This document shows, in pieces, positions 18,216 through 35,466 of a stretch of 64,000 bases of DNA. The position numbers and the translations under genes were made by a program. Position 1 is the stretch's first letter, and the number at the start of each line of letters is the position of its first letter. Below the pieces are notes generated by a model that did no database searches, had not been told where the DNA came from, and saw nothing but the letters and a program-made list of their open reading frames with translations. Source of the DNA: Escherichia coli (lineage in GTDB: Bacteria > Pseudomonadota > Gammaproteobacteria > Enterobacterales > Enterobacteriaceae); assembly GCF_011045215.1 (NCBI RefSeq), contig NZ_CP049201.1, one strand, 5' to 3'.

Positions 18216-18243
18216 GTATGACGATTTTAAGTATTCGTCATAC
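18216..18243 (-). promoter_or_regulatory. NikR operator in the nikA promoter
   Basis: GTATGA-N16-TCATAC read directly (gtatgacgattttaagtattcgtcatac), about 40 bp upstream of the nikA start. Confidence 0.8.
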
Positions 18244-18288: not shown

Positions 18289-18876
18289 TCAGTTAACTGA
18301 ATCGATCCATTGCACACTGTCGGCGGTGAGCGTAAAGGGAGTAGGGGTGCAGATCGCCAGGCTTAAATTTTCTAGCTGACAATGGCTGACTGACAGCGAG
18401 GAGTGATAGGTGCTGTCTACGCTGACGATTTGCCAGGCGCTGCCACCACGCTGTTTAACGATGGCTTCTTTGCGCGTCCAGATGCGCCAGAACATTTCCA
18501 GTTGCTGATCAGGATGCACGGCGTCCATCTCAGCGTGTTCCCCGAGGCTGAATACGGCGTTCGCCAGCCAGCGCCAGTTGGCGCGCGGGCGAATCACTTC
18601 GATATCGCAGCCGACTTCGCCTTCATCACTCAACAGCAGAGCGATATCGTCACCGCTATGGCTTAAGTTGAACCATAGCGGCGTTTCCGGCGCGAATGCA
18701 GGTTTGCCTTGTTCGCCATAGATGATCTCCGGTAGCGGGGAAAGCGTGTGCGAAAGCAATGCACGCCCCGCCAGCCAGCGTTCGCGTCGTGGACCTTGCG
18801 GTGCTTGCTCGCGTAAACCCGGTGGCAGTGGAGCTGCGCTTAAGGTCGAAACTTTCCCCAGAACTATCCGATACAT
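18289..18876 (-). CDS. acpT: 4'-phosphopantetheinyl transferase AcpT
   Basis: 195-aa product starting MYRIVLGK (the ORF-track extension to 18996 is probably spurious). Its start codon lies 1 bp after the stop of the last ketosynthase gene of the upstream cluster. Confidence 0.85.
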   Translation of the reverse strand: MYRIVLGKVSTLSAAPLPPGLREQAPQGPRRERWLAGRALLSHTLSPLPEIIYGEQGKPAFAPETPLWFNLSHSGDDIALLLSDEGEVGCDIEVIRPRANWRWLANAVFSLGEHAEMDAVHPDQQLEMFWRIWTRKEAIVKQRGGSAWQIVSVDSTYHSSLSVSHCQLENLSLAICTPTPFTLTADSVQWIDSVN

Positions 18877-18877
18877 A

Positions 18878-20107
18878 TCAGGGCCAACGTTTAATGATGA
18901 TGGATGTATTAATGCCGCCAAAGGCAAAGTTGTTACTCTGCAAAAACTCACAATCAACCTTGCGGGCTTCATGCATGATGTAATCCAGCGCGCCACAATT
19001 CGGGTCTGGTTTATTCAGGTTTAGCGTAGGCGCAAACCAACCTTCGCGCATCATTTGCAGACTCATCCAGGCTTCGAGCGCGCCACAGGCACCAAGCGTA
19101 TGACCAAAATAACTTTTCAGCGAGGAGAGCGGCACATTATCACCGTAAATGGTTGCTGTCGCCAGACTTTCTGCCATATCACCGCGATCGGTCGCCGTAC
19201 CATGCGCTGAAATATAGCCGATATCTTGTGCGCTTAACCCGGCGATTTTCAGCGATTGCTCCATACAATACTGCATGGTTTCGCTCTGCGGCTGGGTAAT
19301 ATGTGCCGCGTCGCAGTTAGTCGCAAAGCCGACGATTTCACCGTAAATGGTCGCGCCGCGCGCTTTGGCGTGCTCCAGTTCTTCGAGAATGAGCGTACCT
19401 GCGCCTTCACCAATCACCAGCCCGTCGCGGTTTTCATCGAACGGTGAAGGTGTGGTTTTCGGCGCATCATTGTGCTGGCTGGTGGCGAAAAGCGTATCAA
19501 ATACCGCTGCTTCTGAAGGACATAACTCTTCGGCACCACCAGCAACCATCACCGTTTGATAACCGTGGCGAATGGCTTCCCACGCATAACCGATTGCCTG
19601 GCTGCCGGAAGTACAGGCGCTGGAGGTTGGGATCACCCGCCCGCGCAGGCCGAAAAAGAGGCCAGTATTAACGGCGGTGGTGTGCGGCATCATCTGCACA
19701 TAGGTGGTGCCAGTGATGTTATTGGTGTGCTTTTCCGTCAGCATGGTGGCGAACTCGCTTACCGGGCCGGTACTGCCGGTCGATGAACCGTACGCAATGC
19801 CCGTTTCGCCGCTGGTTAATATCGGATCGCCAATCAACCCTGCCTGCTCTAACGCCAGCTCGCTGGCACGGGTCGACATTTGCGACACGCGGCCCATCGC
19901 ACGGATACGCTTGCGGGTGTAGTGCTCCGGTAGCGTGAAATCATCAACAGGCGCGCCAAGCAGGGTGTGCAGCCCATCGTAGACCTGCCACTCCGGCATT
20001 TTGCGCACCGCATTTTCATATGCCAGTAAGCGTGCAGAAACGTCCTGCCAGTTTTCACCAAAGGCAGTCACGCCGCCCATTCCTGTAATCACTACGCGAC
20101 GTGTCAT
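18878..20107 (-). CDS. Beta-ketoacyl-ACP synthase (KAS I/II type), last biosynthetic gene of the APE-type cluster
   Basis: 409 aa; Cys-His-His triad contexts (SSACTSG, HGTAT, GHTLGA). By cluster order this would be apeR in the Xenorhabdus nomenclature as I recall it (unverified). Confidence 0.85.
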   Translation of the reverse strand: MTRRVVITGMGGVTAFGENWQDVSARLLAYENAVRKMPEWQVYDGLHTLLGAPVDDFTLPEHYTRKRIRAMGRVSQMSTRASELALEQAGLIGDPILTSGETGIAYGSSTGSTGPVSEFATMLTEKHTNNITGTTYVQMMPHTTAVNTGLFFGLRGRVIPTSSACTSGSQAIGYAWEAIRHGYQTVMVAGGAEELCPSEAAVFDTLFATSQHNDAPKTTPSPFDENRDGLVIGEGAGTLILEELEHAKARGATIYGEIVGFATNCDAAHITQPQSETMQYCMEQSLKIAGLSAQDIGYISAHGTATDRGDMAESLATATIYGDNVPLSSLKSYFGHTLGACGALEAWMSLQMMREGWFAPTLNLNKPDPNCGALDYIMHEARKVDCEFLQSNNFAFGGINTSIIIKRWP

Positions 20108-20835
20108 AACATCCCTCCGTTGATGGAAATAACCTGGCGGGTGACGTAACCCGCAATATCAGACATTAAATAACTGGCAAGCCCGGCAACTTCTTCCGCC
20201 TGGCCCATACGTTTCATGGGGATCATCGACATTGCCTCTTTCAGAGCGCTCTCTTCCATTTCGATCATCCCGGTATCAATAAGCCCCGGCGCGATGCAGT
20301 TGACGGTGATTTTGCGCTTCGCGAGTTCGATAGCCAGCGCTTTTGTTGCGCCGATAATTCCGGCTTTGGCAGCGCTGTAATTCACCTGGCCGCGATTGCC
20401 CATTACGCCGGAAACCGAGGATAGCGTGATGATGCGCCCACCCTGGCGTGCGCCGATCATCGGCATAATGCACGGCTGAATGACGTTGTAGAAACTGTCG
20501 AGGTTGGTGTGGATCACCGCATCCCAGTCGTCATCGCTTAAAGCCGGAAAAGCGGCATCGCGGGCGATCCCGGCGTTACTGACCACGCCGTACCAGGCAC
20601 CGTGTTGCGCGATCTCATGCTCCAGCACTTCCCGACACTGTTCGCGGTTTGCGACGTCGAAACTGAGCAAACGCCCGTTACCCCCATTGGCGACAATGGC
20701 ATTCAGCGTTTCCTGAGCGCCTGTGGCGTCACGGTGATAGTGAACGCCAATGTTAAAGCCGTCTGCCGCCAGTTGGCAGGCGATGGCGCGACCAATGCCT
20801 TTGCTGGCACCAGTAACCAGAACTGAACGACTCAT
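20104..20835 (-). CDS. 3-oxoacyl-ACP reductase (SDR, FabG-like)
   Basis: 243 aa; TGASKGIGRAIA cofactor motif, NAG, YSAAK catalytic motif. Would be apeQ by order (unverified). Confidence 0.85.
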   Translation of the reverse strand: MSRSVLVTGASKGIGRAIACQLAADGFNIGVHYHRDATGAQETLNAIVANGGNGRLLSFDVANREQCREVLEHEIAQHGAWYGVVSNAGIARDAAFPALSDDDWDAVIHTNLDSFYNVIQPCIMPMIGARQGGRIITLSSVSGVMGNRGQVNYSAAKAGIIGATKALAIELAKRKITVNCIAPGLIDTGMIEMEESALKEAMSMIPMKRMGQAEEVAGLASYLMSDIAGYVTRQVISINGGML

Positions 20836-21299
20836 CAGGACGCTCCTTGTTGAAACAGGGTGGTAAGTTCTTCCGCGGTCGGCTGGAAGGTGTTAATGCG
20901 GCCCGTCGCCTCGCCGTCGTTGATGCTGCACTCAAAACTGCCGAAGCGATCGTCCTGCATCAGCAGTTTGACGGTAATGGTCAGCGTCTGGCCTGCGGGC
21001 AGAATGCCAGTGGTGCAAAGCAATTCACGCGCGCCCAGTATCATCCCTAACTCAATACTGTTTTTGCCTTGCTGGTGGCGATGCCAGCCAGACCAGACGC
21101 CGACGGTTTGCGCCATCAGTTCAAGGGCAAACCAGCCAGGGAGATTGCCGTCCGGGTCGAGAAACGGTGCCAGTACGCCACTGGGCGAAACCGTCACGCG
21201 GCACACCGCGCTGTCATCGCTGACGCTCACCACGTCTTCCAGCAGTAACATGGGCGCGTCGTGGGGCAGATAAGCGCCGGGGGATAAATAGTGGCTCAC
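20835..21299 (-). CDS. Hot-dog fold 3-hydroxyacyl-ACP dehydratase (FabA/FabZ-like)
   Basis: 154 aa, hot-dog-fold size and composition; sits between KR and KS genes. Would be apeP by order (unverified). Confidence 0.7.
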   Translation of the reverse strand: MSHYLSPGAYLPHDAPMLLLEDVVSVSDDSAVCRVTVSPSGVLAPFLDPDGNLPGWFALELMAQTVGVWSGWHRHQQGKNSIELGMILGARELLCTTGILPAGQTLTITVKLLMQDDRFGSFECSINDGEATGRINTFQPTAEELTTLFQQGAS

Positions 21300-22474
21300 G
21301 AAACCCTCCCGAGCAGAATGCTGGCGTTATTGCCGCCAAAGGCGAAGGAATTGGACAGGATCACCGGACGTGCCAGCGGCTGTGGTTTTTCGATAATGCC
21401 GCACGGTGGCAGCGTGGGATCGCACGGCGACAGGCTGAAGTCCTGAGCGGGCAGCGGTAAATCACGCTGTAAAATCAACATGCTGATTGCCGCCTCGGTA
21501 ATGCCCGCCGCGCCCAGCGTGTGGCCGGTCAAATGTTTGGTGGAACTGCACGGTACGCGTTCGCCAAACAGGGCGTTAACCACCATTGATTCAATCTGAT
21601 CGTTGAGTTGTGTGGCGGTGCCGTGCAGGTTGATATAGCCGACGTCATCTGGCGTAAGCTGTGCATCGTTCAGCGCCTGATTAATAGCGCGGATCGCTCC
21701 TTCGCCCTGCGGATGCGGGGCTGAAATATGGTAAGCGTCGCTCGATTCACCAACGCCCAGCAACGCGATGGGCTGCGGTTCCCGGGTCAGCAGCATTAGC
21801 CCCGCCCCTTCACCAATGGTGATACCTGCGCGGTCACGACCAAACGGCTGACATAAGGTTGGCGACAGCGATTCGAGGCTGTGAAAACCGTTAATCGGCA
21901 TCCGGCTCAGGGTGTCTGCGCCACCCACAATGGCGGCATCGACCAGCCCCGCTTCGATAAGCCTGCGCCCGCTGATTATCGCTCTGGCGCTGGAAGAGCA
22001 GGCGGTTGAAAGGGTATAGGCCGGGCCGTCGAGCGCCAGCCAGTGGCTGAGAAAACGCGACGGATCGCCGAGTTCCTGTTGCGCGTAGTGCCATGTGGTG
22101 CTCGGCTGCCCGTGGGTGCGCAGGTTAACGTGCGTGTCGCCTTCATGCAGGCCGGAGGTGCTGGTGCCAAGTACAATCGCGATGCGCTCGCGACCATATT
22201 TCGCGATAGCGTCATCAACCTGCGGCTGGATCTGCGCCAGCGCCGCCAGCAGGATCTGATTGTTGCGCGAGCGGTGCGCAGCGAATTTTTCCGGGATAAG
22301 CGGAAGCTCGCCATCCACGCCAGCCAGGACCGCCTGCGGATGCCCCTGCAACCAGCCTGCGCGCGGGCGCATGCCGGGAGCAACACCGCGAGTCAGGTTG
22401 GTTGCGATTTCGTCAAGGTTATTTCCCAGGGCGTTGATCATGCCGACGGCGGAAATATAAATCATATCAGTCAC
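21296..22474 (-). CDS. Beta-ketoacyl synthase (elongating KS)
   Basis: 392 aa; active-site contexts STACSSS, HGTATQ, GHTLGA. Would be apeO by order (unverified). Confidence 0.85.
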   Translation of the reverse strand: MTDMIYISAVGMINALGNNLDEIATNLTRGVAPGMRPRAGWLQGHPQAVLAGVDGELPLIPEKFAAHRSRNNQILLAALAQIQPQVDDAIAKYGRERIAIVLGTSTSGLHEGDTHVNLRTHGQPSTTWHYAQQELGDPSRFLSHWLALDGPAYTLSTACSSSARAIISGRRLIEAGLVDAAIVGGADTLSRMPINGFHSLESLSPTLCQPFGRDRAGITIGEGAGLMLLTREPQPIALLGVGESSDAYHISAPHPQGEGAIRAINQALNDAQLTPDDVGYINLHGTATQLNDQIESMVVNALFGERVPCSSTKHLTGHTLGAAGITEAAISMLILQRDLPLPAQDFSLSPCDPTLPPCGIIEKPQPLARPVILSNSFAFGGNNASILLGRVS

Positions 22475-23051
22475 CTAAGTATTGAATGGTGATGTGGTAT
22501 TTAAAGACATGCTGCTCAATGCTGATTGGCACGCGTTTTCCCTGGCGATTCAGATAGGTGATTTCCGTGACCAGTTTGCCGCTGGCGTTACGCAGCTCGC
22601 GTTTGTCACCGTTGTCGCGAAGTGTCCATCCTGCGGGAAGTTGCGGTTGCCAGGCGCTAATCGGCCAGTGGCTGAGCATCACGTCAGCCAGTACCTGACT
22701 TGCGGGCGGTAACTGTGGGACGACGATGGATTGCTCGGCGCGTAGCCCTTGCGCATCGTAGGTCACCAGAAACAGGCGAATGCCGACCGACGACAGCCCG
22801 GCAAGGGTGATTTTCTGATCGTCGGCGTTAAGCATTACTAGCAGCGACTGGGTGTTGCCGTTGAAGCTGCCGGTTAACAGTTGCTGGGAATTGACGGCGG
22901 GTGAAATCCCCGGTGCCGGCAGCGTGATGCGCGTGCCAGGTTGCAGCCACGCCTGCGGGCGGCCTTCCTGTTCCGGTTGCGAGTGGCTACAGCCGGTGAG
23001 GATAAGCGTAGCGGTCAGGGCGAACGCTCGCCAGAAGGTAGGTTTGATCAT
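22467..23051 (-). CDS. Lipoprotein (DUF3261-like)
   Basis: 194 aa; signal peptide with lipobox (LTGC). Confidence 0.7.
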   Translation of the reverse strand: MIKPTFWRAFALTATLILTGCSHSQPEQEGRPQAWLQPGTRITLPAPGISPAVNSQQLLTGSFNGNTQSLLVMLNADDQKITLAGLSSVGIRLFLVTYDAQGLRAEQSIVVPQLPPASQVLADVMLSHWPISAWQPQLPAGWTLRDNGDKRELRNASGKLVTEITYLNRQGKRVPISIEQHVFKYHITIQYLGD

Positions 23052-25366
23052 TTTTTTGTTCTCTTTTTATCGGGCATAGCCAGCGGCGAAAGCAGGAAGG
23101 CGGTGAAAATACCGCTCACCAGCACAATGCCAAAACTGCTGATGGCCTGGGTGGCGCTGAATACCAGCATTCCCAGCGTCAGCAAGGTGGTGAGCATTGC
23201 CAGTGTGATCGCCAGTAGCGAAGTTAACGGCGTACCGCGCGGATTACTGAAAAACAACGTGTAGTTGATACCGATGCCAAGTACCAGCACCAGCGCCAGC
23301 AGCGAAAAGAGATTCACCGCCTGCCCGCTCATCGCCAGCACCGCCAGACCACAGCCCAGCGAAAGCACCGAAGGCACCAGGCTGATAAGCCCTTTGCGCC
23401 AGCCGAGACGGGCCACTGCGCCGCAGGCAATCACTGCCAGCGCCACCAGCAACAAGCCGGTTAAGACGTAGCGGTAAAGTGCGAACAATTCATCAAAGGT
23501 GCTTTTGCGATCAACCCAGGCAATGCCGCAAGGGTAATATGTGGCGATTTCCTGCATCAACGCGCTACTTTTAACCCCTTCAACCGGCACCAGTACGCCG
23601 CTTTCGCCATTTTCCAGCGTCAGCCACAGCAGACGCCAGCCTTCACTGGCGGGGCTTGCCAGCCATTCATCAACGTTCACTGGCATGGCGTTGAGATCTG
23701 GTTTCACCGCCGTCAGCCCGGCGTTTTGCAGTGCTTTTGTTACCGTCGGGGCCGCCGTTTTCAGCAGGTCTAAATCTTCCTCCTGTCGCGCCAGAGAGTT
23801 CAGCGGAATAGTGCGGTAATTGCTGATAAGACCGTCTTTTTTCGCCTTCTCCAGCGAGGAGGTAAATGTCTCCAGCCGTCCCAATGTTTGCTGTGGGGAG
23901 TCGCCGTAAACCACAAACCATTTTTGATCGACGCTTTGCCCGGTCAGGGCGGTAATGGCTTTCTCCTGGGTCAGAATATGCTGCGGTAGCGCCTGTAACT
24001 GCGAGATATCGTCATCGACGCGCAGCATTGACATCCCCGCCAGCGAAAACAGCGCCAGCGCGACGGGCAGACCCAGCGACAGTTTTTTATTACGCCGCCA
24101 CGCTGCCAGCCAGCGTAGCATCAGCGCCATCGCCGGAACCGGACGCACCGGCAGGCCACGGCACAGCCACGGATGCCAGAACAGGACGGTCAGACAAGAG
24201 GCGCTCAACCCGACGGCGGCAAAAATCGCCATCTGGCGAATGCCTGGGAAGGGGGCGAGCATCATAATCAGATACGCCGCCACGGTGGTGAGCAGCGCCA
24301 GTAGCAAGGCATTGCGTACTTTCGCCAGGCTTTGCCACGGCGAAACGTCGTTGCCGTGCACCATCCGCTCGGTGAGATAATAGAGCGTGTAGTCAGCGGA
24401 AATGCCGATAACGCTCATGCTCATTACCAGCGTCATCAGGTGTAATTCACCGAAAATCAATAAAGTGGCGACCGTTCCCGCCAGCGCGCCGATGCCGATG
24501 GAAATCACGCAAAGCAGCAACGGGCGCAAAGAGCGGAACACCGCCACAATCAGCAATATCACCCCCAGCAGCGTTGCCACGCCCAGGGTTGAGATATCCT
24601 GCTTCGCCTGTTGGCTGGCGTAATCGCTGTAAAACACCGTGCCGCGCGAAAGCAGCTGCGCCTGCGGGTAACGCGTTTTCAGATCCTTTTCCAGCGTATT
24701 CAGGGTCGTGATGAGCTGGTGGGTTTGCTGCATATCAAACGACGATCCCGCCAGTTCACCGTGCAGCAGATACCAGTAGTTGCCCTGGGGATCCTGCGTC
24801 ACCAGCCAGCCGTCCATCAGCCGCAAACGCTGGCCGTTTTTCGCCATCGCCAGCTGCGAGCCGCGCATTAACATCAGCGGATCGTTTTGCAGCTCCTTGC
24901 CGCTTACCCCGGAGAACGCAGAATAAAGCTGGGAGAGGATCCACTGCGCCTGCGCTTCGCCGCCGTTTTGCAGGCGCGCGCGGGTGTCGGGGTCAATCAG
25001 GCCGTTGCGGTGCTGCCAGAAAAACGCTCCCCACGCTTGCTGGCTGGCGGCATCCATTGGCCCTTTAACGTCGCCGAGCGCAGCGGATTTTTGCAGCAGC
25101 GTCAGCCACTCCTGAGCGACCAAAGGATTAGCCTCTTTACCGGGGCTGACCAGCCACACCAGTTGGCGGTCAAGACGCTGCATAAAGCCGTCATTCAGCG
25201 CCGGAGGAATATCGCCCATCGTCTGTTTGGGTAACATAGCCAGCACGCTACTGTTCAGCCGTGATTGCGGCAGCAGGATCAGCAACGCCGCCGCCATGAC
25301 CAGGCAGACTAGCCCCCATAACAGCGCGGGGCGTTTACTGGGCGGCAAAACGTTGGCGTTCGTCAT
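23048..25366 (-). CDS. MMPL/RND-superfamily membrane exporter
   Basis: 772 aa; two blocks of transmembrane helices each following an extracytoplasmic domain, typical of MMPL-type lipid exporters. Confidence 0.75.
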   Translation of the reverse strand: MTNANVLPPSKRPALLWGLVCLVMAAALLILLPQSRLNSSVLAMLPKQTMGDIPPALNDGFMQRLDRQLVWLVSPGKEANPLVAQEWLTLLQKSAALGDVKGPMDAASQQAWGAFFWQHRNGLIDPDTRARLQNGGEAQAQWILSQLYSAFSGVSGKELQNDPLMLMRGSQLAMAKNGQRLRLMDGWLVTQDPQGNYWYLLHGELAGSSFDMQQTHQLITTLNTLEKDLKTRYPQAQLLSRGTVFYSDYASQQAKQDISTLGVATLLGVILLIVAVFRSLRPLLLCVISIGIGALAGTVATLLIFGELHLMTLVMSMSVIGISADYTLYYLTERMVHGNDVSPWQSLAKVRNALLLALLTTVAAYLIMMLAPFPGIRQMAIFAAVGLSASCLTVLFWHPWLCRGLPVRPVPAMALMLRWLAAWRRNKKLSLGLPVALALFSLAGMSMLRVDDDISQLQALPQHILTQEKAITALTGQSVDQKWFVVYGDSPQQTLGRLETFTSSLEKAKKDGLISNYRTIPLNSLARQEEDLDLLKTAAPTVTKALQNAGLTAVKPDLNAMPVNVDEWLASPASEGWRLLWLTLENGESGVLVPVEGVKSSALMQEIATYYPCGIAWVDRKSTFDELFALYRYVLTGLLLVALAVIACGAVARLGWRKGLISLVPSVLSLGCGLAVLAMSGQAVNLFSLLALVLVLGIGINYTLFFSNPRGTPLTSLLAITLAMLTTLLTLGMLVFSATQAISSFGIVLVSGIFTAFLLSPLAMPDKKRTKK

Positions 25367-25940
25367 CGGTCAGTTGCGCTGGCGTCAGTTGATGTTGGGT
25401 AAGAGCAATATCGGTGCGATCGCCCTGTTTATCATTAAGTTGAATGCTCTCCAGATAGGTTTTCCCGGCGAGATCGATGGTGTTGAAAATTTTATCCAGC
25501 GGCGTGGTGGTCGGCGTCAGGCGCAGCGTCCAGCGGCCTTCGCCTTTGTCAGCAAATTCGACGCGGAAGTTTTGTTCCAGCACTTTGCGATCGGCCTGGA
25601 ACAGCGCGCGCAGCAGGTGGTTAAACTGGAACATCTGCGGGTTGTTTTCTGCCGTGATGATTTGCGGCGGCTGACCGTTGATCACCTGCACCATGCGTTT
25701 ATCGTCCAGTAATAGCTGCATGGGGAATGGTGAGGTTTGATCCCACAACAGCCCCTGGTCGCGGGCGATCAACATCTGGCCCTGAGATCGCAGCGGCTGC
25801 GGCAGATCTTTAATCGTCCGGGTTTGATCGAAATGGGCGCGGATCACCGGTTGTTCGGTAAAGCGTTGCTGAAGATCGTCCAGGGTCAGGGCGCTCACAA
25901 ACGGGCTAATCAGCAGCGCCAGCAGCGGTAAAAATTTCAT
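25335..25940 (-). CDS. LolA-like outer-membrane lipoprotein carrier
   Basis: 201 aa with signal peptide; LolA-family length and composition; 32-bp overlap with the MMPL gene. Confidence 0.65.
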   Translation of the reverse strand: MKFLPLLALLISPFVSALTLDDLQQRFTEQPVIRAHFDQTRTIKDLPQPLRSQGQMLIARDQGLLWDQTSPFPMQLLLDDKRMVQVINGQPPQIITAENNPQMFQFNHLLRALFQADRKVLEQNFRVEFADKGEGRWTLRLTPTTTPLDKIFNTIDLAGKTYLESIQLNDKQGDRTDIALTQHQLTPAQLTDDERQRFAAQ

Positions 25941-26359
25941 GGTTTGACTCCCATGCGTTCAAACAGAATATCGGGGCTGACAAAGCACAGTTCGCGACTT
26001 TGCTCGTCGACCGCGACCTGAATGGTGTATCCGGTGGTGGCGCGTTTGCCCGTTTCGGCATCGAAAATCTGATAGCCAATCCGCAGACGGTTTTCGAACT
26101 CTTCGATATGCGCACGCACGCGGATGCGTTGCTCAAAGGTGAGGGCGTGGCGATATTTCACCCGCGCATCGACCACTGGCCACAAATAACCGGACTCTTT
26201 CATCTGCCGATAGCCGTAATTGAACTGGTTGAGCAGCGCCTCGCGAGCCACTTCAAAGTAGCGAAAATAGTTACCGTGCCAGGCCACGCCCATCATATCG
26301 ACGTCGTGAAAGGGAATGGTCAGCTCGACTTCAGCGGTAAATCGGGGATCGTTAAGCAC
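25937..26359 (-). CDS. Acyl-CoA/acyl-ACP thioesterase (4HBT / YbgC-like hot-dog)
   Basis: 140 aa; 4HBT-type N-terminal motif (IPFHDVDMMGVAWHGNYFRYFE). Confidence 0.8.
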   Translation of the reverse strand: MLNDPRFTAEVELTIPFHDVDMMGVAWHGNYFRYFEVAREALLNQFNYGYRQMKESGYLWPVVDARVKYRHALTFEQRIRVRAHIEEFENRLRIGYQIFDAETGKRATTGYTIQVAVDEQSRELCFVSPDILFERMGVKP

Positions 26360-28039: not shown

Positions 28040-28413
28040 AGGCGGATCTTCCCGCTACTGGCGGTGTGGCGGGCGTCACCGTCGTGACGCTGATAGCTAA
28101 AGCTCAGAATCTGGCGATCTTCCTGCCAGTTAAGCGTGAGCGTGACGCGGTTTTCCGGCAGCAACGGAGACTGGAATTTTATGTTCTGAATGGAGTGAAA
28201 ACGCCAGCCAGGCGCGAGCAGGGCAAGCGCGTAACTCATGGCCCAGTCGATTTGCGCAACTCCTGGGAGTAATGGTTGCACGGCAAAATGGCCGCGAAAC
28301 CAGAACAGATCTGCCCTGAGATGCAAAACAATCTCAAGGTGATTCGCTTGTGCCTGATGGCGCTCGATTTCATGGGGCTTCATGAAATAACTCCTGTAAT
28401 TGCGCATAGACAC
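28030..28413 (-). CDS. FabZ/FabA-like hot-dog dehydratase
   Basis: 127 aa; FabZ-type motif (FRGHFAVQPLLPGV). The start may lie at an internal Met (MKPHE...). Confidence 0.75.
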   Translation of the reverse strand: MSMRNYRSYFMKPHEIERHQAQANHLEIVLHLRADLFWFRGHFAVQPLLPGVAQIDWAMSYALALLAPGWRFHSIQNIKFQSPLLPENRVTLTLNWQEDRQILSFSYQRHDGDARHTASSGKIRLCR

Positions 28414-29731
28414 GCTTGTTCATACTGTTTACTGGCATTTCATCAATAACGCGCCAGTAACGCGGAATGGCAACCGGCTCCAGCATCGGGCGCAGTAATC
28501 GCCGCCAGGCTATTTCCTGGCTATGCCCGCCGCCGTGCTGCCATTGCAGGCGAGCTTCGTCATCCAGCACCAGCAAAACGCCAATGCACTGACGCCCGCC
28601 GCGTGTAACAGGAACTGCCGCCGCCTCGCGAATACCGTCCAGTGCCAGCAGACGTTGTTCCACTTCCTGGAGTGAAATGCGTTTTTCTTCAATTTTAACG
28701 ATGCGTCCGCGACGCCCCATCAGATGGAACTGGCCGTCTTCGCTAAACTGTAAGATATCGTCGAGTAACAGGCCGTTATCTTCCGCCATCAGCGGTGAAA
28801 AGAGACGAAAAGAATCACCTTCGGCCTGGAACTGCATACCTGGGAGGGGTAGCCAGCGGCGTTGCTCTTGTTCGCGGTAGCGCCAGGCGATGACGCCGGT
28901 TTCCGTGCTGCCGTAGATTTCATCAGGCCAGACGCGCAGCCAGCTTGCGGTGTGTTGTACATCCTGCCACGGCAGCTCACCGCCAGCAGAGAGAAGCACC
29001 TGAACGGGTGGCGGAGAAAGCTGGGTATCCAGGCGCTTCAAAAATGCCGGGCTGCTGATGAAGATATAGCGATGCTGATGACTCAACGCGGCAAACTGTT
29101 CGACATACCAGAGCATGGCGGCGTGCAGCGGTAATCCCAACGCCATGGGCAGGAAAACGCGAAAAGTCAGGCCGTACAAATGCTGCGGCAATACGGAACC
29201 GACGACACGACAACCCGCCAGACGTGCGCCTAATCGTTCAGCCAGCAGTTCTGCTTCACGATCCAGCAAATGAACAGGTTTAATCACCCGTTTCGGCTGT
29301 CCCGTGGAACCGGAGGTAAACAGCTCGATAAAAGCCTCTGGCGCTATAGCGGAAAAGGTGAAGGATTGTGTCGCGATTTGTGGAGAACTTGCTACCAACA
29401 GCAATGAACCTTGCCAGTTAAGTTCGCTGTCGCTAAGCACACCATCAAAAAGTTCACGTTGCTCGTTAAGCTGGATAACACGGTTATGCCCCGGAAGCAC
29501 CGGCGTTTTTCCGGCGTGTAGCGTGGCGAGCAGGGCAACGATAAACAGATAGCTGTTCTCAAAGCACAGCGCCCAGCGTTCACCTGGCTGTTGCTGCAAG
29601 CGGCAGATAAGTTGCGCGACATCGTGACGCAAATCGCCCAGCGTCCAGGTGCTTTCGTCCAGCCACGCAATGGGCGTGTCATCAGGGCGTGGCGCAGTCA
29701 GCCAGCGTGCAAGCGGTAAGGTCTGCTTCAT
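28370..29731 (-). CDS. AMP-dependent synthetase/ligase (adenylating enzyme; candidate aryl starter-unit activator)
   Basis: AMP-binding motif TSGSTGQPK. Start placed at the Met that forms an ATGA overlap with the upstream gene's stop (plus strand 29728-29731 reads tcat); the ORF track extends to 29770. Confidence 0.8.
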   Translation of the reverse strand: MKQTLPLARWLTAPRPDDTPIAWLDESTWTLGDLRHDVAQLICRLQQQPGERWALCFENSYLFIVALLATLHAGKTPVLPGHNRVIQLNEQRELFDGVLSDSELNWQGSLLLVASSPQIATQSFTFSAIAPEAFIELFTSGSTGQPKRVIKPVHLLDREAELLAERLGARLAGCRVVGSVLPQHLYGLTFRVFLPMALGLPLHAAMLWYVEQFAALSHQHRYIFISSPAFLKRLDTQLSPPPVQVLLSAGGELPWQDVQHTASWLRVWPDEIYGSTETGVIAWRYREQEQRRWLPLPGMQFQAEGDSFRLFSPLMAEDNGLLLDDILQFSEDGQFHLMGRRGRIVKIEEKRISLQEVEQRLLALDGIREAAAVPVTRGGRQCIGVLLVLDDEARLQWQHGGGHSQEIAWRRLLRPMLEPVAIPRYWRVIDEMPVNSMNKRVYAQLQELFHEAP

Positions 29732-30309
29732 GCGCGATCTCTTTTCATCACCTGACGGCGCACCAGCCATTCACCAGCCATTAATGTTCCCATCAACAAA
29801 TAAGCAATCATGCCGTTCCAGGCGGTCCATAACGACATATCGGCATAAAGCGCGGTAAAGAGGGCAATTCCACCGTTGATGATGAAAAAGCCGCACCAGA
29901 TTTGCGTGACGCGGCGGGTATAGCGCATGCCCTTTTCCGGCAGATCTGGCTCCTGCAAACGCGCCAGCCGCTCAACTATCGGCATTGCCGACCACAGCGA
30001 ACCGCCAAAAACCGCCAGCATGACCGCGTTAACCACTACCGGGTAAAACAGCAGTAGCTGGTGTGTTTTCAACAGAACGCTGGCGACACATAATGCGATG
30101 CCCACGACAGCGACGATTTGTGTGACGACCTGGAGCGGCCCCGCCTGGCGACGGGTCTGGCGCAGGCGCAACAAAAGCAGCAACGCTATTAGCGGCAACA
30201 GCCAGTGCAGGCCGTTATGCGCTAAGCCAAACCAAATCACAAACGGCCAGGCGAGCAGCAATAATCCAGTCAGCAGCTTAATCATCGGTAGCGAGCGAAT
30301 GCCCGACAT
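29728..30309 (-). CDS. Small polytopic membrane protein of unknown function
   Basis: 193 aa, about 5 predicted hydrophobic helices; embedded in the operon with coupled stop/start. Confidence 0.6.
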   Translation of the reverse strand: MSGIRSLPMIKLLTGLLLLAWPFVIWFGLAHNGLHWLLPLIALLLLLRLRQTRRQAGPLQVVTQIVAVVGIALCVASVLLKTHQLLLFYPVVVNAVMLAVFGGSLWSAMPIVERLARLQEPDLPEKGMRYTRRVTQIWCGFFIINGGIALFTALYADMSLWTAWNGMIAYLLMGTLMAGEWLVRRQVMKRDRA

Positions 30310-30313
30310 CAGA

Positions 30314-30565
30314 TCAGGCTTCTTGTAGCAGGCGTTCTACAGCCTCGACGACATCCTGGACTGTACGCACTGCTTTAAACTCTTCCGGCTTGATTTTCTT
30401 ACCGGTTTTCTTTTGCAGGTGCACAATCATGTCAACGGCGTCGATGCTGTCCAGTTCCAGATCTTCGTACAGGCGCGCTTCAGGTTTGATGTCCTGCGGA
30501 TCGATTTCAAACAGCTTAACCAGCAGGGCTGAGACTTCCTGATAGACGGTTTGTTGTTCTGTCAT
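30314..30565 (-). CDS. Acyl carrier protein
   Basis: 83 aa; phosphopantetheine attachment motif (LELDSIDAVD). Confidence 0.85.
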   Translation of the reverse strand: MTEQQTVYQEVSALLVKLFEIDPQDIKPEARLYEDLELDSIDAVDMIVHLQKKTGKKIKPEEFKAVRTVQDVVEAVERLLQEA

Positions 30566-30576
30566 GATGGCTTTCC

Positions 30577-30834
30577 TCAGGCACGTTGCGCAGCAATGAA
30601 AGAGGCCAGAGTGGCGACGGAGAAAAAGTGCTGACGCATCTCTTCGCTTTCCGCAGAGAGCACGATGCCGTACTCATTTTTTACTGCCAGTCCCAGTTCC
30701 AGGGCATCGATAGAGTCCAGCCCTAAACCGTCGCCAAACAGCGGCGCGTCGGTATCGATATCATCAGGCGTCAACTCGTCCAGATTGAGGGTGCTGATGA
30801 TGAGGTTTTTAATTTCCAGATAAAGCGCTTGCAT
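30577..30834 (-). CDS. Acyl carrier protein (second, divergent copy)
   Basis: 85 aa; attachment motif (LGLDSIDALE). Confidence 0.85.
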   Translation of the reverse strand: MQALYLEIKNLIISTLNLDELTPDDIDTDAPLFGDGLGLDSIDALELGLAVKNEYGIVLSAESEEMRQHFFSVATLASFIAAQRA

Positions 30835-31630
30835 TATTTATTCCTGAGAGAGGTAAACAACCTTGTTGTAATTGAAGCAAAAGATGCCGGTTTAACTGCC
30901 TTGCTGCCAGCGCCGGTTCTTGTGAAGTTGCATCGTAAAATTTATTGATTTCAACCCGACCATGGACTGCAACCGTAAAAAACGGCCGGTCAGGTGGAAC
31001 GTCATACCATTTACTTTGTTTATCCAGCAGATGCTCGCTACAGCCGATCGTCACGATGCGTAAATCGCTGGCACAGCGCACGGCAATATTCGCCGCCCCG
31101 CGCTGCAGCGTCATTTTTTCACCGGGCTTCGTTCGCGTGCCTTCGGGGAAAATCAGGATAGTGTCACCCTGTGCCAGTCGCTGTTGGCAGCGGGGTAACA
31201 GGGTTTCAGCTTCGCTGTTGATTAAATAATCTGCCGCCCGCACGACGCCGCCAAGAAAAGGATTTTTTAACAGCGCGCTTTTCACCAGGCAGTCAGTTTC
31301 TGGCATGACTGACGCCAGCAGCACGTAATCGATCAGCGTGGGATGATTGGCTACGACGAGGCAACCGCGTTCCTGACGTAAAATTTCAGCGCCATCAATA
31401 CGATAATCCAGCACGCCAAGCCCTTTCGCGACAGTTAAAAACAGGCGAAAACTGGCGGCAATGCTGCGACGCGCCAAACGACGGCGGCGGGAAGTATCCC
31501 ACACCAAAACTAACAATATGTTAAACCACACGACAGAAAGCAGCAGGCCGCCGAGACCAAACAGGGCAAAACATAACCCGGTCATGACCAGTCGCCAGGT
31601 CCACTCCAGACGTGACATCAGCTTACTCAT
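30809..31630 (-). CDS. Lysophospholipid acyltransferase (PlsC-like)
   Basis: HX4D acyltransferase motif (NHPTLID). Start placed at the Met giving an ATGA overlap with the upstream gene (plus strand 31627-31630 reads tcat); the ORF track extends to 31648. Confidence 0.8.
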   Translation of the reverse strand: MSKLMSRLEWTWRLVMTGLCFALFGLGGLLLSVVWFNILLVLVWDTSRRRRLARRSIAASFRLFLTVAKGLGVLDYRIDGAEILRQERGCLVVANHPTLIDYVLLASVMPETDCLVKSALLKNPFLGGVVRAADYLINSEAETLLPRCQQRLAQGDTILIFPEGTRTKPGEKMTLQRGAANIAVRCASDLRIVTIGCSEHLLDKQSKWYDVPPDRPFFTVAVHGRVEINKFYDATSQEPALAARQLNRHLLLQLQQGCLPLSGINNASALSGN

Positions 31631-32352
31631 CTGTGGCTCCAGCGCCATTGCACGCGCTCGCCAGGCAGTGAAAATGTGTCTACATTTTGTAAATAGTGCT
31701 GTAAAAACAACATGCTTTGCGGCAGTGTTGTTTCATTGCCCGCAATGGCTGACTGCGTTTCACATTGCCAGTCATCGCCAGCTTCAATCACCAGCGCGAC
31801 GGCGTACGGCCAGGTCGGCATTTCTGCAGGCAGTTGTGGGTGATAAAACTCGGGCAGAAAACCGTCAAAATCGACCATCAGCACGCGCTGGTATCCCGCT
31901 TGTAACAGGCTAAGCACTTCACACAAACCTTGCTGGAAAGTGTCGCGACCAGCAGAAAGCGATGACGAAACGATCGGCTGTTTGGCCGCAATGGTCAGGT
32001 TACCCACGGAAGAGTTGTGTACTGAAAGTGCAAAGTCGGTCGGAGAAAGCGCCTGTTCGGTTGCCAGTGCATGAACAATGCGGTAATTGCGCTCCAGTTC
32101 GCCATGACGACTGGTATACAAAACGGCGTCTGGCTGATGGCGGCGTAGCATTGCCAGACCGCATTCAACAGCCAGTTTGCTGCCTGAACTGAGGCGGCGG
32201 GCGGTCATCATTGGCAGTTCACTTAATTTTGCCAACGGCGCGGCAGGGTCAATCGCCCACGGCTGGCGCGACCATGCTTGCCATTGCTGCGCTTCGCTAA
32301 GTCCAGGCGCCAGTGCCTGCCAGTCGGTAATATTTAATGTAAATTTCATCAA
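31627..32352 (-). CDS. Short ketosynthase-like protein (chain-length-factor-like KS partner)
   Basis: 241 aa with KS-like sequence but much shorter than a full KS and no clear Cys-His-His triad (SVHNSSVG where the active-site Cys block would be). Confidence 0.65.
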   Translation of the reverse strand: MMKFTLNITDWQALAPGLSEAQQWQAWSRQPWAIDPAAPLAKLSELPMMTARRLSSGSKLAVECGLAMLRRHQPDAVLYTSRHGELERNYRIVHALATEQALSPTDFALSVHNSSVGNLTIAAKQPIVSSSLSAGRDTFQQGLCEVLSLLQAGYQRVLMVDFDGFLPEFYHPQLPAEMPTWPYAVALVIEAGDDWQCETQSAIAGNETTLPQSMLFLQHYLQNVDTFSLPGERVQWRWSHR

Positions 32353-32389: not shown

Positions 32390-33457
32390 TTATTTCTTTT
32401 GGCATATCAAAAGTGTATGCCCAACGCCTAAATTATCGTGGCGCTCTGCTACCTGGAATCCTGCTTTATTCAGATAGTCGTAAAATTTCTCTGCACTATA
32501 GAAACGGCTGTTACCGTTTGCCATGCAGGTAAAATAAAGTGAGGACGCGTTCAGGCTAAACGATGCTGCTTCAAACCGCTGCGCATCCCAGAACAACTCC
32601 ATGATGCAAACTTTTGCGCCAGGCTTCATTACGCTGGCAATTTTGCTGAGTATGCTAATTATTTGTTCGGGTGAAAAACAGTCTAAAAATTGGCTCATCC
32701 ACCAGATATCAGCCTCGCCCGGTAATGGGGCATCGCTTAGCATATCCACCGCATGGAAATCTATGCGATCAGAAAAACCTGCATTCGCGATATTTTCTTT
32801 CGCTAGTACGATTTGTTGTGGCAGATCTAATAACGTCACGGCGATGTTTTCATTGTATTTGCAGCAACGCAAAGCCCACTTACCCGTATTGCCGCCTACA
32901 TCGTACAATGTTGTGGGGTTGTTGGCGAATACATAAGGCAGTGCGGCGTTAAATGCGCCATCTGAATAGTAATGATCAAACGCAAACCAGCTTTCACGAG
33001 CGGCGTCTGGTAATTGCGAAAGTGCCGGATATATCGTCGACCAGTCGCCAAATACTTTTAACCCGGAAGGTTTTCCTTCATTGAGTGAATCGGCGAGGAA
33101 GAAGAGCCCCTGGTAACAGACATCCTGGGTGAAATCCATATTCACGCGAGTCATAGTGTCATGCAGGAGGTAATGACCGATTTTCGCCAGGTAATAAATT
33201 CCCTCTTTACAGGTAATAATTCGCCCGCTTAAGCCCATATCTAACAGAACGCTGGCAGCATATTCGTTGATATGGCTATGTTCGGTGATATCAGCCAGCG
33301 TTGCGCCATGTTTGCCTTGCCGATCCAGATATGAAAGTACACCCGCATTACGTAGGCAGAGTGCTGTTTGAAAAAGCATAGGGGCAAAGGCAATGCGTTG
33401 AGCTTCGGTAATCGCATCCAGTGCGCTAAGAGAATCCTGTTCGTACATGTTGGGCAC
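32390..33457 (-). CDS. SAM-dependent O-methyltransferase (class I)
   Basis: 355 aa; SAM-binding motif (LYDVGGNTGKWA) within a C-terminal Rossmann-like domain. Would be apeB by order (unverified). Confidence 0.8.
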   Translation of the reverse strand: MPNMYEQDSLSALDAITEAQRIAFAPMLFQTALCLRNAGVLSYLDRQGKHGATLADITEHSHINEYAASVLLDMGLSGRIITCKEGIYYLAKIGHYLLHDTMTRVNMDFTQDVCYQGLFFLADSLNEGKPSGLKVFGDWSTIYPALSQLPDAARESWFAFDHYYSDGAFNAALPYVFANNPTTLYDVGGNTGKWALRCCKYNENIAVTLLDLPQQIVLAKENIANAGFSDRIDFHAVDMLSDAPLPGEADIWWMSQFLDCFSPEQIISILSKIASVMKPGAKVCIMELFWDAQRFEAASFSLNASSLYFTCMANGNSRFYSAEKFYDYLNKAGFQVAERHDNLGVGHTLLICQKK

Positions 33458-33516
33458 AACCTGTTAAGAGGGAATTAAATTATTATCGGACCGCAACGGC
33501 CCGACTTTAGGAAGAA

Positions 33517-33906
33517 TTATAAATCTGCGCCCGCTGACAAATTCAGTTGAATATCTTTGTCGAGATTGCGGACCCAGCGATTGTAGTTTTTATGAATTTG
33601 TCCGCCTGACGCTTGTAGGTTCTGGCTATTTTCATAATTGATATCGTAGCTGGATGCCGTGTAGTTAATGCGTATTTCCGCTGAATGATCGCGTGACTGT
33701 TGACGTGCTTTAATTATGCCTTGTCCGGCTTCGGACATAATCCATTTGCGTTCAACGCCAGCTTTCAGAATCGCTTTTTTCACTTGTTCCTGGGTATGAC
33801 CAGCGCTGACGGTTGAGTGAACCTGATCAATTGGCGCAGTACGCGCGCAACCTGCTAAAGCACCCACAACAGCAATAGCCGCAAACCATTTCATGTAATG
33901 TCTCAT
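33517..33906 (-). CDS. Small lipoprotein of unknown function leading the cluster
   Basis: 129 aa; signal peptide plus lipobox (LAGC); the real start may be the internal Met at MKWFAAI. Confidence 0.6.
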   Translation of the reverse strand: MRHYMKWFAAIAVVGALAGCARTAPIDQVHSTVSAGHTQEQVKKAILKAGVERKWIMSEAGQGIIKARQQSRDHSAEIRINYTASSYDINYENSQNLQASGGQIHKNYNRWVRNLDKDIQLNLSAGADL

Positions 33907-34236
33907 TAGAACCCCATTAAAGTATTGTTTTTACGAGTAAAGCAAGATTTAACTGTAATTGCTGGCATCACTATTCTTTATTTAGAGAAAAAATTACTTG
34001 TGAGATAAGTCAGTAAGTGCACATCAGAGTAAAAATCTCTGAAATGACTAAATTACTGCCAGCAGGGACCAACTATAAGTGAGTGAGAAAAATGAGGCAA
34101 TAAAAATAACACAATGTTATCAGTGCATTCTTTGAGAAGGATTTAATCGCTATTCGGCGTTTATATATATTTGACTTAAGGAATGGTTTTTTTAAATTAA
34201 TTTTCTGAATAATGTTTCATCATTTCCTCAAATCAA

Positions 34237-34265
34237 ATGGCCACTGTTAGATAAACGGTGGCCAT
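34237..34265 (-). terminator. Hairpin downstream of yhhT (candidate terminator)
   Basis: 8-bp inverted repeat ATGGCCAC / GTGGCCAT with 13-nt loop, 20 bp after the yhhT stop. Confidence 0.4.
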
Positions 34266-34285
34266 TGCCTGCTCAGGAGGTGCTA

Positions 34286-35335
34286 TTAACCCGGTAACCG
34301 ACTTTTCGGTCTGCCCGGCCCCAGTAAAATCGCCAGTTTGCTACCGCCTTTGGTGGTTTCCATCCAGATTTTACACACGCTGGTTAATGGCACCGAAAGT
34401 AGCATCCCTACCGGGCCGAGCAGCCATCCCCAAATTAACAATGAAAGAAATACCACCATGGTGGACATCCCCAGGCGATGGCCCATCATCCGTGGTTCTA
34501 AAATATTGCCGATAACCATATGGACAACTAAAAACAATGCGCCGACCAGAATACATTCGTAAACACCATTAAACAGCAGCACCTGAATCATTGGCGGTAC
34601 GGCGGAAATTACCGCGCCGATATTGGGCACGTAGTTGAGCAAAAACGCCAGTACTGCCCACATCAGCGCAAACTGCACCCCCATCAGCTCCAGCCCCAGC
34701 CAGACGATGACACCTGTCCATAAACTGAGTAGCGTCTTCAATGCAAGATAGTGCGAAACACCTTTTAAGGCGCGGTGTAGTCCGGCGATATGAATCTGTG
34801 GATTATTCAATGCAAAACGCATTTTGTAAGGGACGTGGCGCACTTCAAACAGCATAAAAACTACGGTCATCACCAGCAAAAGCACGCTCGCCATTGCCCC
34901 GGAAAGCCCGGTCATTAGCGCTGTGGTGAAGGTAACCACTTTTTCCGAGTCCATCCGCTGCAGCATTCGCTCCGGCGACATATGCAAATTAAGAAAAGGC
35001 AACATCTCCTGCAATTTAAAAAGTTTGCGCGTCAGCTCCTTATTAAACTTCGGCAGCATAGAGATAAATTCGTTAAACGATGCCGCCAGTACGCCGACCA
35101 GCGCGGTTAGTGTGATCAGCATCACCACCACCACAATCGTAATGGCAACGGGGCGTTTTACTCCCCGTCGAATAAACCAGGTAACGAGCGGGTTGAGGAC
35201 GATGGCAAAAAACAGCGCCAGTAACAGCTGCACAATGATATCTGCCGCTGCGTGAATGCCCGCGAGGATCACTACCAGCGAGGCCAGCTTGAGCAGAATG
35301 TGCATGCCCGTTTTATCGGGTTGAGGGGTTTCCAT
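34286..35335 (-). CDS. yhhT: AI-2E/PerM-family membrane transporter
   Basis: 349-aa product starting METPQPDKTG; the ORF track adds a 27-codon upstream extension. Confidence 0.88.
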   Translation of the reverse strand: METPQPDKTGMHILLKLASLVVILAGIHAAADIIVQLLLALFFAIVLNPLVTWFIRRGVKRPVAITIVVVVMLITLTALVGVLAASFNEFISMLPKFNKELTRKLFKLQEMLPFLNLHMSPERMLQRMDSEKVVTFTTALMTGLSGAMASVLLLVMTVVFMLFEVRHVPYKMRFALNNPQIHIAGLHRALKGVSHYLALKTLLSLWTGVIVWLGLELMGVQFALMWAVLAFLLNYVPNIGAVISAVPPMIQVLLFNGVYECILVGALFLVVHMVIGNILEPRMMGHRLGMSTMVVFLSLLIWGWLLGPVGMLLSVPLTSVCKIWMETTKGGSKLAILLGPGRPKSRLPG

Positions 35336-35466
35336 TGGGGCTTCCTTGTGACTTTTTGTATTAAGTGTAGCGGGAGTCACGCCAGCAATATTCTGATTCT
35401 TACTGCTGATTTTCACGTCAGCACGTGGTAAAAATGAAACACTGTTGTAAAAATGTGGTGATCCTC

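Follow-up and report, generated by a model that had tools for sequence, protein, structure and literature searches.

Within the window, that is, the whole 64,000-nt stretch of E. coli DNA analysed here, 19 co-directional minus-strand genes are packed so closely between 18.3 and 33.9 kb that stop and start codons overlap at many junctions. This raises the questions of whether the locus is expressed as one translationally coupled operon and at which codons its genes begin.

Gene content and order of the cluster

On its gene content and order, the region is identified as the acpT-linked aryl-polyene (APE) biosynthetic cluster of E. coli, of the "O-island 138" type (apeA-apeR plus acpT). NCBIfam matches comprise AcpT, FabG2, two ketosynthases, two acyl carrier proteins (ACPs) and an FlxJ-type methyltransferase, with scores above the cut-off for FabG2, both ACPs and both ketosynthases, and the acpT product matches positions 1-195 of the 195-position AcpT model. 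Among the product names that RefSeq gives in 97-99% identical genomes are chain length factor (CLF) and ApeI/ApeP family dehydratase. The core type II PKS/FAS-like set is complete (ketosynthases ApeO/ApeR, CLF ApeC, two ACPs, ketoreductase ApeQ and dehydratases ApeI/ApeP), and the ligase ApeH and the attachment/export genes (ApeD, ApeJ, ApeG, ApeL, ApeM and ApeN) are all present, in apeA-R order. The genes, with Shine-Dalgarno (SD) sequences where relevant, are as follows.

33517..33906 (-), apeA, lipoprotein; start 33906 conserved across genera, with SD
32390..33448 (-), apeB, FlxJ-family methyltransferase; ATG 33448, 68 nt past the apeA stop
31627..32349 (-), apeC, chain-length-factor-like ketosynthase partner; ATG 32349, 40 nt past the apeB stop
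30809..31630 (-), apeD, lysophospholipid-type acyltransferase; revised start 31630, 273 aa
30577..30834 (-), apeE, acyl carrier protein; ATG 26 nt within the apeD 3' end (ATG in 82/82 loci)
30314..30565 (-), apeF, acyl carrier protein; 11 nt past the apeE stop
29728..30309 (-), apeG, COG4648 membrane protein; 4 nt past the apeF stop, without SD
28370..29731 (-), apeH, adenylate-forming ligase; revised start 29731, 453 aa
28030..28383 (-), apeI, dehydratase; start 28383, 14-nt overlap with apeH, 117 aa
26363..28039 (-), apeJ, glycosyltransferase/acyltransferase; 10-nt overlap with apeI (10 nt in 73/83 loci)
25937..26359 (-), apeK, thioesterase; GTG start 3 nt past the apeJ stop, strong SD
25335..25940 (-), apeL, LolA-like; ATGA overlap with apeK (80/82 loci), strong SD
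23048..25366 (-), apeM, MMPL/RND transporter; ATG 32 nt within the apeL 3' end (60/79 loci), without SD
22467..23051 (-), apeN, DUF3261 protein; ATGA overlap with apeM, SD weak and not above background
21296..22465 (-), apeO, ketosynthase; start 22465, TGA-T-ATG with a 1-nt gap, 389 aa
20835..21299 (-), apeP, dehydratase; GTGA 4-nt overlap with apeO, strong SD
20104..20835 (-), apeQ, FabG2 ketoreductase; 1-nt overlap with apeP (ATGA register shifted)
18878..20107 (-), apeR, ketosynthase; ATGA overlap with apeQ, GGAGG SD
18289..18876 (-), acpT, phosphopantetheinyl transferase; ATG 1 nt past the apeR stop (TGATATG), without SD

In RefSeq, the apeA start is placed at 33894 in some strains.

E. 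coli chromosomes with the arrangement nikA-acpT-ape-yhhT are 98.4-98.8% identical to the window, and the best match (98.8%) is a non-O157 environmental strain. O-island 138 of E. coli O157:H7 EDL933 occupies the same locus (nikA-acpT-cluster-yhhT) at ~97% identity with allelic differences only, and an O157:H7 genome in RefSeq has the same start codons as the window. This island with acpT in EDL933 was reportedly described by De Lay and Cronan in 2006 (cited in PMC8253772; see also PMC2907692). The CFT073-type cluster and 80 loci of other genera also have a colinear gene order. The CFT073 APE cluster, apeA-apeR = c1186-c1204 (Cimermancic et al. 2014; Johnston et al. 2021, PMC8253772), shares the same 18 genes, order, orientation and junction geometry, and the CFT073-type ApeR and ApeK proteins are identical to those of the window. 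However, it lies at a different chromosomal locus, has no acpT downstream and shows 80-90% nucleotide identity to the window in the 28.0-32.4 kb segment. Yellow aryl-polyene lipid production is documented for the CFT073 and Xenorhabdus doucetiae clusters only (PMC8253772; bioRxiv 10.1101/2020.12.19.423268). The stop/start overlaps are real and conserved, but such close packing is ordinary for this well-known E. coli pigment-lipid cluster, and the operon inference is already known, having been made for the homologous CFT073 cluster by Johnston et al. 2021, where overlapping open reading frames (ORFs) were taken to suggest polycistronic mRNA(s) (PMC8253772).

Start codons and junction geometry

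The sequence-only reading had proposed that the ligase and the acyltransferase start at internal methionines rather than at the longer ORF starts, and the comparison of related loci backs this proposal, as do the identical starts in RefSeq. The plus strand does read TCAT at both places where it had been reported, and both ATGs are in frame; in the ligase ORF the ATG is codon 14, in the acyltransferase ORF codon 7.

29728..29731 (-), ATGA junction of the apeG stop and the apeH start; no SD upstream
31627..31630 (-), ATGA junction of the apeC stop and the apeD start; GGAG 6 nt upstream

Both overlaps are kept in about 75–80% of ~80 Enterobacterales loci. The short ApeH start is found in 81/83 loci (as ATGA in 61/83) and the short ApeD start in 77/82 (as ATGA in 67/82, with an SD in 74% of loci). 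ApeH homologues have 449-455 aa and no extension in all but five of the 120 matches listed, and the RefSeq annotation of three E. coli genomes uses exactly the short ApeH and ApeD starts. Judged by this comparison, ApeH and ApeD begin at methionines whose ATG overlaps the upstream TGA. Use of the longer starts, at 29770 in the ligase gene and 31648 in the acyltransferase gene, is very unlikely in E. coli. Long and short ATGs of both genes are present and open in every E. coli allele examined, and the short ligase start likewise lacks an SD. Nevertheless, the extension is broken or startless in 19/83 loci for the ligase (a stop codon closes 15 and 4 have no start codon) and in 14/82 for the acyltransferase, its residues are identical at 3 of 12 positions between the two E. 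coli cluster types, and GGAG stands at the correct spacing for 31630 only. Variation within the extensions tracks the upstream reading frame, and the ATG/GTG codons of the long starts are explained by conserved Glu-Trp and Gln-Trp codons that the upstream genes carry in their own frame.

All overlap lengths given by the sequence-only reading were reproduced with longest-ORF coordinates (4 nt at 20104, 21296, 23048 and 25937; 1 nt at 20835; 8 nt at 22467; 10 nt at 28030; 26 nt at 30809; 32 nt at 25335; 44 nt at 28370), but the 44-nt and 8-nt values are artefactual. For apeI, the ATG at 28383 occurs in 83/83 related loci and its SD is strong and conserved, while the GTG at 28413 is missing in 21/83; the overlap then shrinks to 14 nt. 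At apeO, 78/78 loci have ATG at position 22465, 17/78 lack the GTG at 22474, which has no SD, and the overlap becomes a 1-nt gap. Since apeI starts at 28383 and apeO at 22465, these two of the ORF track's long overlaps result from over-extended starts.

With corrected starts, 11 of the 18 junctions overlap and five more are spaced by no more than 11 nt. The distance lies between -8 and +6 nt at 11/18 junctions, compared with 24% of E. coli unidirectional pairs (baseline from PMC10666635; binomial p = 8e-4). Each junction retains its exact geometry in about 80 genomes from many Enterobacterales genera, and on this conservation the geometry is under selection. A tightly packed co-directional unit reaching acpT, as originally claimed, is borne out by the acpT ATG, which lies 1-2 nt past the apeR stop in 55/60 loci.

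Transcript start and the stem-loop after apeA

Three features bear on where the message begins and how far it extends.

34237..34265 (-), terminator-like hairpin 3' of yhhT, followed by UUUGAUUUG; z = -2.5 against shuffles
33907..34285 (-), AT-rich intergenic region (33% GC) between yhhT and apeA; sole site for a promoter upstream of apeA
33485..33505 (-), GC-rich stem-loop GUCGGGCCG-UUG-CGGUCCGAU, 11 nt past the apeA stop; about -13 kcal/mol (-13.3)

Transcription would most likely begin in the AT-rich spacer upstream of apeA, which contains one weak sigma-70-like match (TTGCCT-17-TATAGT at 34100-34072), and the hairpin after yhhT probably keeps transcription of yhhT out of the ape genes. Scans of 17.5-35.8 kb for sigma-70 promoters and intrinsic terminators gave counts equal to those in shuffles. 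When the 400 nt preceding apeA were aligned for 23 loci, the SD and start were conserved but no promoter was, and this region is not conserved between genera. No Rfam match was found in the cluster. Literature searches on O-island 138 and the ape genes, aimed at mapped operons or transcription start sites, returned only co-regulation data. In an rpoS mutant, seven O-island 138 genes change together (PMC2907692).

Structure 3' of each stop codon of the cluster did not exceed shuffled controls except after apeA, and in the apeB-apeC spacer folding was no stronger than in shuffled sequence. The best terminator-like match, inside apeG (29915-29890), was rejected as chance, its structure not being conserved and its T-run being a Phe-Phe codon pair. 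The hairpin in the acpT-nikA spacer is a GTATGA-N16-TCATAC palindrome, which we take to be of the NikR operator type, and was therefore not counted as a terminator. The stem-loop after apeA is kept in 54/64 distinct loci and is followed by at least five T in 9 nt in 19/64, including the CFT073-type E. coli allele; some CFT073-type alleles carry a clean U-tract, whereas the window has a weak one (tail AAUAAUUUA, 3 U only). Conserved and terminator-like in some loci, this stem-loop suggests attenuation or termination before apeB, an argument for apeA being attenuated or set apart from apeB-acpT. Its role is probably to attenuate, terminate or stabilise the message over apeA, and a long message would come from read-through past it, not as one uniform 15 kb transcript.

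A division into two units, in which apeA is a terminated monocistronic gene and apeB-acpT is read from its own promoter in or around the apeA 3' end and the hairpin, is unlikely, although several observations agree with it. Besides the stable hairpin with its T-rich tail in some loci, pigmentation survives apeA deletion (PMC8253772), and in the homologous cluster of X. doucetiae a single PBAD before apeB switches on the whole cluster (Grammbitter et al., bioRxiv 10.1101/2020.12.19.423268). However, the apeB ATG follows the hairpin at a distance of only ~39 nt, a stretch that holds the conserved RBS motif TTAACAGGTTGT and has no room for a standard promoter. The promoter scan gave no match between hairpin and apeB, and the U-tract in the window is poor.

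Probable translational coupling within the cluster

Strong conserved SDs occur at eight genes (apeD, I, K, L, O, P, Q and R), and a scan across related loci detected none above background at apeH, apeM, apeN, apeG and acpT. The cluster fits a polycistronic, partly translationally coupled operon that would include acpT, with apeB or apeC through acpT presumably read from polycistronic mRNA. The SD-less apeH, apeN and acpT, and probably apeM and apeG, would be translated by termination-reinitiation after the upstream gene, while the eight genes with strong SDs may also initiate independently, so that coupling is not required at those junctions. Work on native ATGA pairs of E. coli has demonstrated termination-reinitiation (PMC6728339). 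The coupled pairs of Huber et al. 2019 (PMC6728339; PMC10666635) are alike in being co-directional with -4 or -1 nt overlaps or few-nt gaps and, as there, several downstream genes here lack an SD; however, four ape junctions overlap by 10-32 nt, beyond the range tested for reinitiation (PMC10666635).

It is improbable that the overlaps reflect genome compaction only, with several internal promoters and independent initiation at each gene. The strong SDs at eight genes would suit such an arrangement, Johnston et al. allow 'one or multiple polycistronic mRNAs' (PMC8253772), and in the rpoS mutant the O-island 138 genes change by different factors, from 2x to 6x (PMC2907692). Against this, 16 consecutive junctions from apeC to acpT leave no more than 11 nt between genes, so any internal promoter must sit within coding sequence, and promoter-like matches are no more frequent than in shuffles. 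Moreover, five genes lack an SD above background, and the single inserted promoter was enough in X. doucetiae, where it yielded complete APE lipid, as expected for an operon; that cluster belongs to another genus and is silent under laboratory conditions. The best explanation of the sequence data is very probably an APE cluster with selected junctions and short starts, a polycistronic mRNA with partial coupling, and read-through past the apeA hairpin.

The value of these results lies mainly in annotation hygiene. The short starts are the ones to choose in constructs of ApeH (453 aa), ApeD (273 aa), ApeI (117 aa) and ApeO (389 aa), and in-frame deletions need to leave the overlaps intact, as those of Johnston et al. 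already did (PMC8253772). Polar effects are expected on the SD-less apeH, apeN, apeM and acpT. The hairpin after apeA provides a small lead on how the cluster stays silent. Speculatively, and with little likelihood, it may be a regulated attenuator gating read-through into apeB-acpT, with the SD-less ATGA, TGAnATG and 32-nt-overlap junctions fixing protein ratios, including that of the cluster's own phosphopantetheinyl transferase. If true, this would account for the silence of APE clusters in culture and for their activity once a promoter is inserted before apeB. The conserved acpT position, 1-2 nt past apeR with no SD, agrees with the published view that the acpT of K-12 is an orphan of this cluster.

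The acpT-linked ape cluster and its relatives

ORF listing and composition delimited 19 co-directional minus-strand ORFs, comprising the aryl-polyene (APE) genes apeA–apeR and acpT, between two flanking genes:

16604-18178, nikA
34286-35416, yhhT

The gene order in the window corresponds to that from apeR to apeA in the characterised aryl-polyene cluster of E. coli CFT073 (PMC8253772), and the cluster sits where O157 carries O-island 138, an island whose acyl carrier proteins (ACPs) are AcpT substrates (De Lay & Cronan 2006, as cited in PMC8253772). NCBIfam scans were consistent with the gene assignments of the cluster, and AcpT, read from a start at 18876, matched the NCBIfam equivalog model end to end. 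E. coli TB06052 is 98.4% identical to the window over 28 kb, and in the RefSeq annotations of this strain and of an O157:H7 strain the order is nikA, acpT, cluster, yhhT. From the acpT side, the cluster there encodes the following: ketosynthase, FabG2, ApeP dehydratase, ketosynthase, DUF3261, MMPL, LolA-like, thioesterase, glycosyltransferase, ApeI dehydratase, AMP-binding ligase, COG4648, two ACPs, acyltransferase, chain-length factor (CLF), methyltransferase and, nearest yhhT, lipoprotein. The MMPL gene apeM (23048-25366) is one codon longer than in TB06052 (2319 versus 2316 nt), and coordinate offsets between the two sequences therefore shift at this gene.

Of 5426 complete E. coli genomes, 824 contain a match to the 28.0-32.4 kb segment, 567 at 95-99% identity and 254 at 80-90%. 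The latter represent the CFT073-type copy, which lies at another locus and lacks acpT. This second ape cluster, found elsewhere on the chromosome in 254 E. coli genomes (compare the A19 and TW10828 sequences), is 80-90% identical over the ligase-to-CLF segment, and two places match in at least one genome. The CFT073 type and the acpT-linked type encode identical ApeR and ApeK proteins, with shared WP accessions. This points to recombination between them. At the 5' end of the cluster (32390-34285), the GC content is 46% in apeA and apeB and 33% in the upstream spacer, and from apeC to acpT it is 51-60% in every gene but one (apeF, 50%). The AT-richness of the 5' end suggests that this DNA has a different origin or is prone to silencing.

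Start codons and junction geometry across genera

For comparison, 80 related loci were picked by ApeH alignment from one-genome-per-species contigs (Citrobacter, Klebsiella, Raoultella, Enterobacter, Lelliottia, Kosakonia, Serratia, Pantoea, Edwardsiella, Atlantibacter, Mangrovibacter and others), and all 19 window proteins were placed on them by tblastn. Gene order was colinear in essentially all of these loci. For every junction we recorded whether the alignment placed a start codon opposite each candidate start, and where that codon lay relative to the upstream stop.

The sequence-only reading had proposed internal starts for the ligase ApeH (29731 instead of 29770) and the acyltransferase ApeD (31630 instead of 31648), and these two revisions are well supported by the alignments. 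The two ATGs lie in frame, as codon 14 and codon 7 of the long ORFs, respectively. The short ligase start is present in 81 of 83 loci (79 as ATG), with a 4-nt overlap with the apeG stop in 61 and an 8-nt overlap in 13; an in-frame stop closes off the long start in 15 loci, and another 4 have no start codon there. Similarly, the short acyltransferase start is present in 77 of 82 loci, as ATGA in 67, and the long one is missing in 14. The long starts look conserved because their ATG/GTG falls within conserved upstream codons: Glu-Trp of ApeG (GA[A/G]TGG) for ApeH and Gln-Trp of ApeC (CA[A/G]TGG) for ApeD. The extensions are not conserved as protein: variation within them tracks the codon period of the upstream gene, and the ligase extensions of the two E. 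coli cluster types share 3 identities in 12 residues, whereas conservation is good in the residues that follow Met14. Among 120 listed ApeH homologues, all but five have 449-455 amino acids and lack the extension. A GGAG motif lies 6 nt upstream of 31630, with a Shine-Dalgarno (SD) sequence at the ApeD start in 74% of loci; none precedes either ligase candidate. Both short starts are already the public annotation, being used by RefSeq in four of the four annotated E. coli genomes examined.

The ten overlap values listed in the same reading, and both TCAT motifs, were reproduced from the sequence, but those at apeH-apeI and apeN-apeO are longest-ORF artefacts. The apeI ATG at 28383 is a start codon in 83 of 83 loci (14-nt overlap in 71), with an SD of -5 kcal/mol or stronger in 94%, and that of apeO at 22465 is ATG in 78 of 78, 1 nt past the apeN stop in 72. 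The alternatives, GTG 28413 for apeI and GTG 22474 for apeO, have no SD and are absent in 21 of 83 and 17 of 78 loci, respectively. The acpT start at 18876, 1 nt past the apeR stop, is present in 58 of 60 loci (at +1 or +2 nt in 55). On the minus strand, apeR-acpT (18874-18880) and apeN-apeO (22463-22469) share the heptamer TGATATG (stop, 1 nt, start). For apeA, the start conserved across genera is 33906 (ATG, GGGG SD; minus strand); RefSeq uses the second ATG, 33894, in TB06052 and O157, and the longer form is annotated in the CFT073 type.

Corrected junction distances (nt; minus, overlap)
apeA-apeB +68
apeB-apeC +40
apeC-apeD -4
apeD-apeE -26
apeE-apeF +11
apeF-apeG +4
apeG-apeH -4
apeH-apeI -14
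apeI-apeJ -10
apeJ-apeK +3
apeK-apeL -4
apeL-apeM -32
apeM-apeN -4
apeN-apeO +1
apeO-apeP -4
apeP-apeQ -1
apeQ-apeR -4
apeR-acpT +1

Eleven of the 18 junctions lie at -8 to +6 nt, against 24% of unidirectional pairs in E. coli K-12 (PMC10666635; binomial p = 8e-4). The geometry particular to each junction is retained across genera with only 50-75% protein identity: the 32-nt apeL-apeM overlap in 60 of 79 loci, the 10-nt apeI-apeJ overlap in 73 of 83, and ATGA at apeK-apeL in 80 of 82 and at apeQ-apeR in 75 of 76. This conservation is a stronger argument than the binomial p for more-than-chance packing. Such packing is what operons normally look like.

Probable translational coupling and the proposed long transcript

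SD strength is bimodal across the cluster: strong and conserved in apeD, I, K, L, O, P, Q and R, and at background level in apeC, G, H, J, M, N and acpT. For apeH, apeN and acpT, which lack an SD and whose starts touch the upstream stop, termination-reinitiation would most likely be the entry route; native ATGA pairs of E. coli have been shown to use it, and it declines steeply with distance (PMC6728339, PMC10666635). For apeM, which starts 32 nt upstream of the apeL stop and has no SD, we only infer a coupling mechanism. The operon and coupling interpretation is standard and already published for the sister cluster.

The single long transcript that had also been proposed is no more than plausible. 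Of the following features, the first two favour it and the third counts against it:

34237-34265, minus strand, terminator-like hairpin (AUGGCCAC...GUGGCCAU then UUGAUUUG) directly past the yhhT stop
33907-34285, spacer upstream of apeA, 33% GC
33485-33505, minus strand, GC-rich, stable stem-loop 11 nt past the apeA stop

The hairpin after yhhT and the AT-rich spacer make a transcription start upstream of apeA a reasonable expectation. Against the single transcript, promoter-like matches were at chance level only, and the spacer showed no conservation between genera. In its favour, from apeC to acpT there is no room for promoters between genes, and no structure exceeded shuffled controls after the stop codons of apeB to apeR. 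In X. doucetiae, one PBAD before apeB activates the entire cluster (bioRxiv 10.1101/2020.12.19.423268); in an rpoS mutant, the expression of seven O-island 138 genes shifts in concert (PMC2907692); and the overlaps had already led Johnston et al. to infer polycistronic mRNA(s) (PMC8253772). The best match of the terminator scan, a 9-bp stem plus UUUUU inside apeG (29890-29915, minus strand), was dismissed as chance: its conservation fails even in a strain with 98.8% identity, and Phe-Phe codons account for the T-run. Downstream of acpT, the only strong hairpin is a perfect palindrome, GTATGA-N16-TCATAC (18216-18243, minus strand), between acpT and nikA, which we take to be of NikR-operator type. 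Read-through of any ape-acpT transcript into nikA is thus conceivable.

The apeA-apeB junction is the only one in the cluster with an excess of folding over shuffles: the 50 nt past apeA have a median fold of -17.0 kcal/mol versus -8.6 (62 distinct loci). The stem is kept with compensatory changes within Enterobacteriaceae, and in more distant genera it is formed by unrelated sequences; a hairpin of -10 kcal/mol or stronger occurs in 54 of 64 distinct loci. In 19 of the 64, the 9 nt that follow it also contain 5 T or more, with a clean U-tract in some lineages, and in the window the tail is U-poor. So stable and structurally conserved a GC-rich stem-loop, 11 nt past the apeA stop, leaves some place for two transcription units split at this point; however, the hairpin and the apeB ATG are 39 nt apart, an interval that contains a conserved RBS motif and is too short for a standard promoter. 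The hairpin would most simply be read as an attenuator or 3' stabiliser inside a read-through transcript. The observation of overlapping junctions is real, yet unsurprising to a specialist; the conserved stem-loop after apeA is its sole modest lead.
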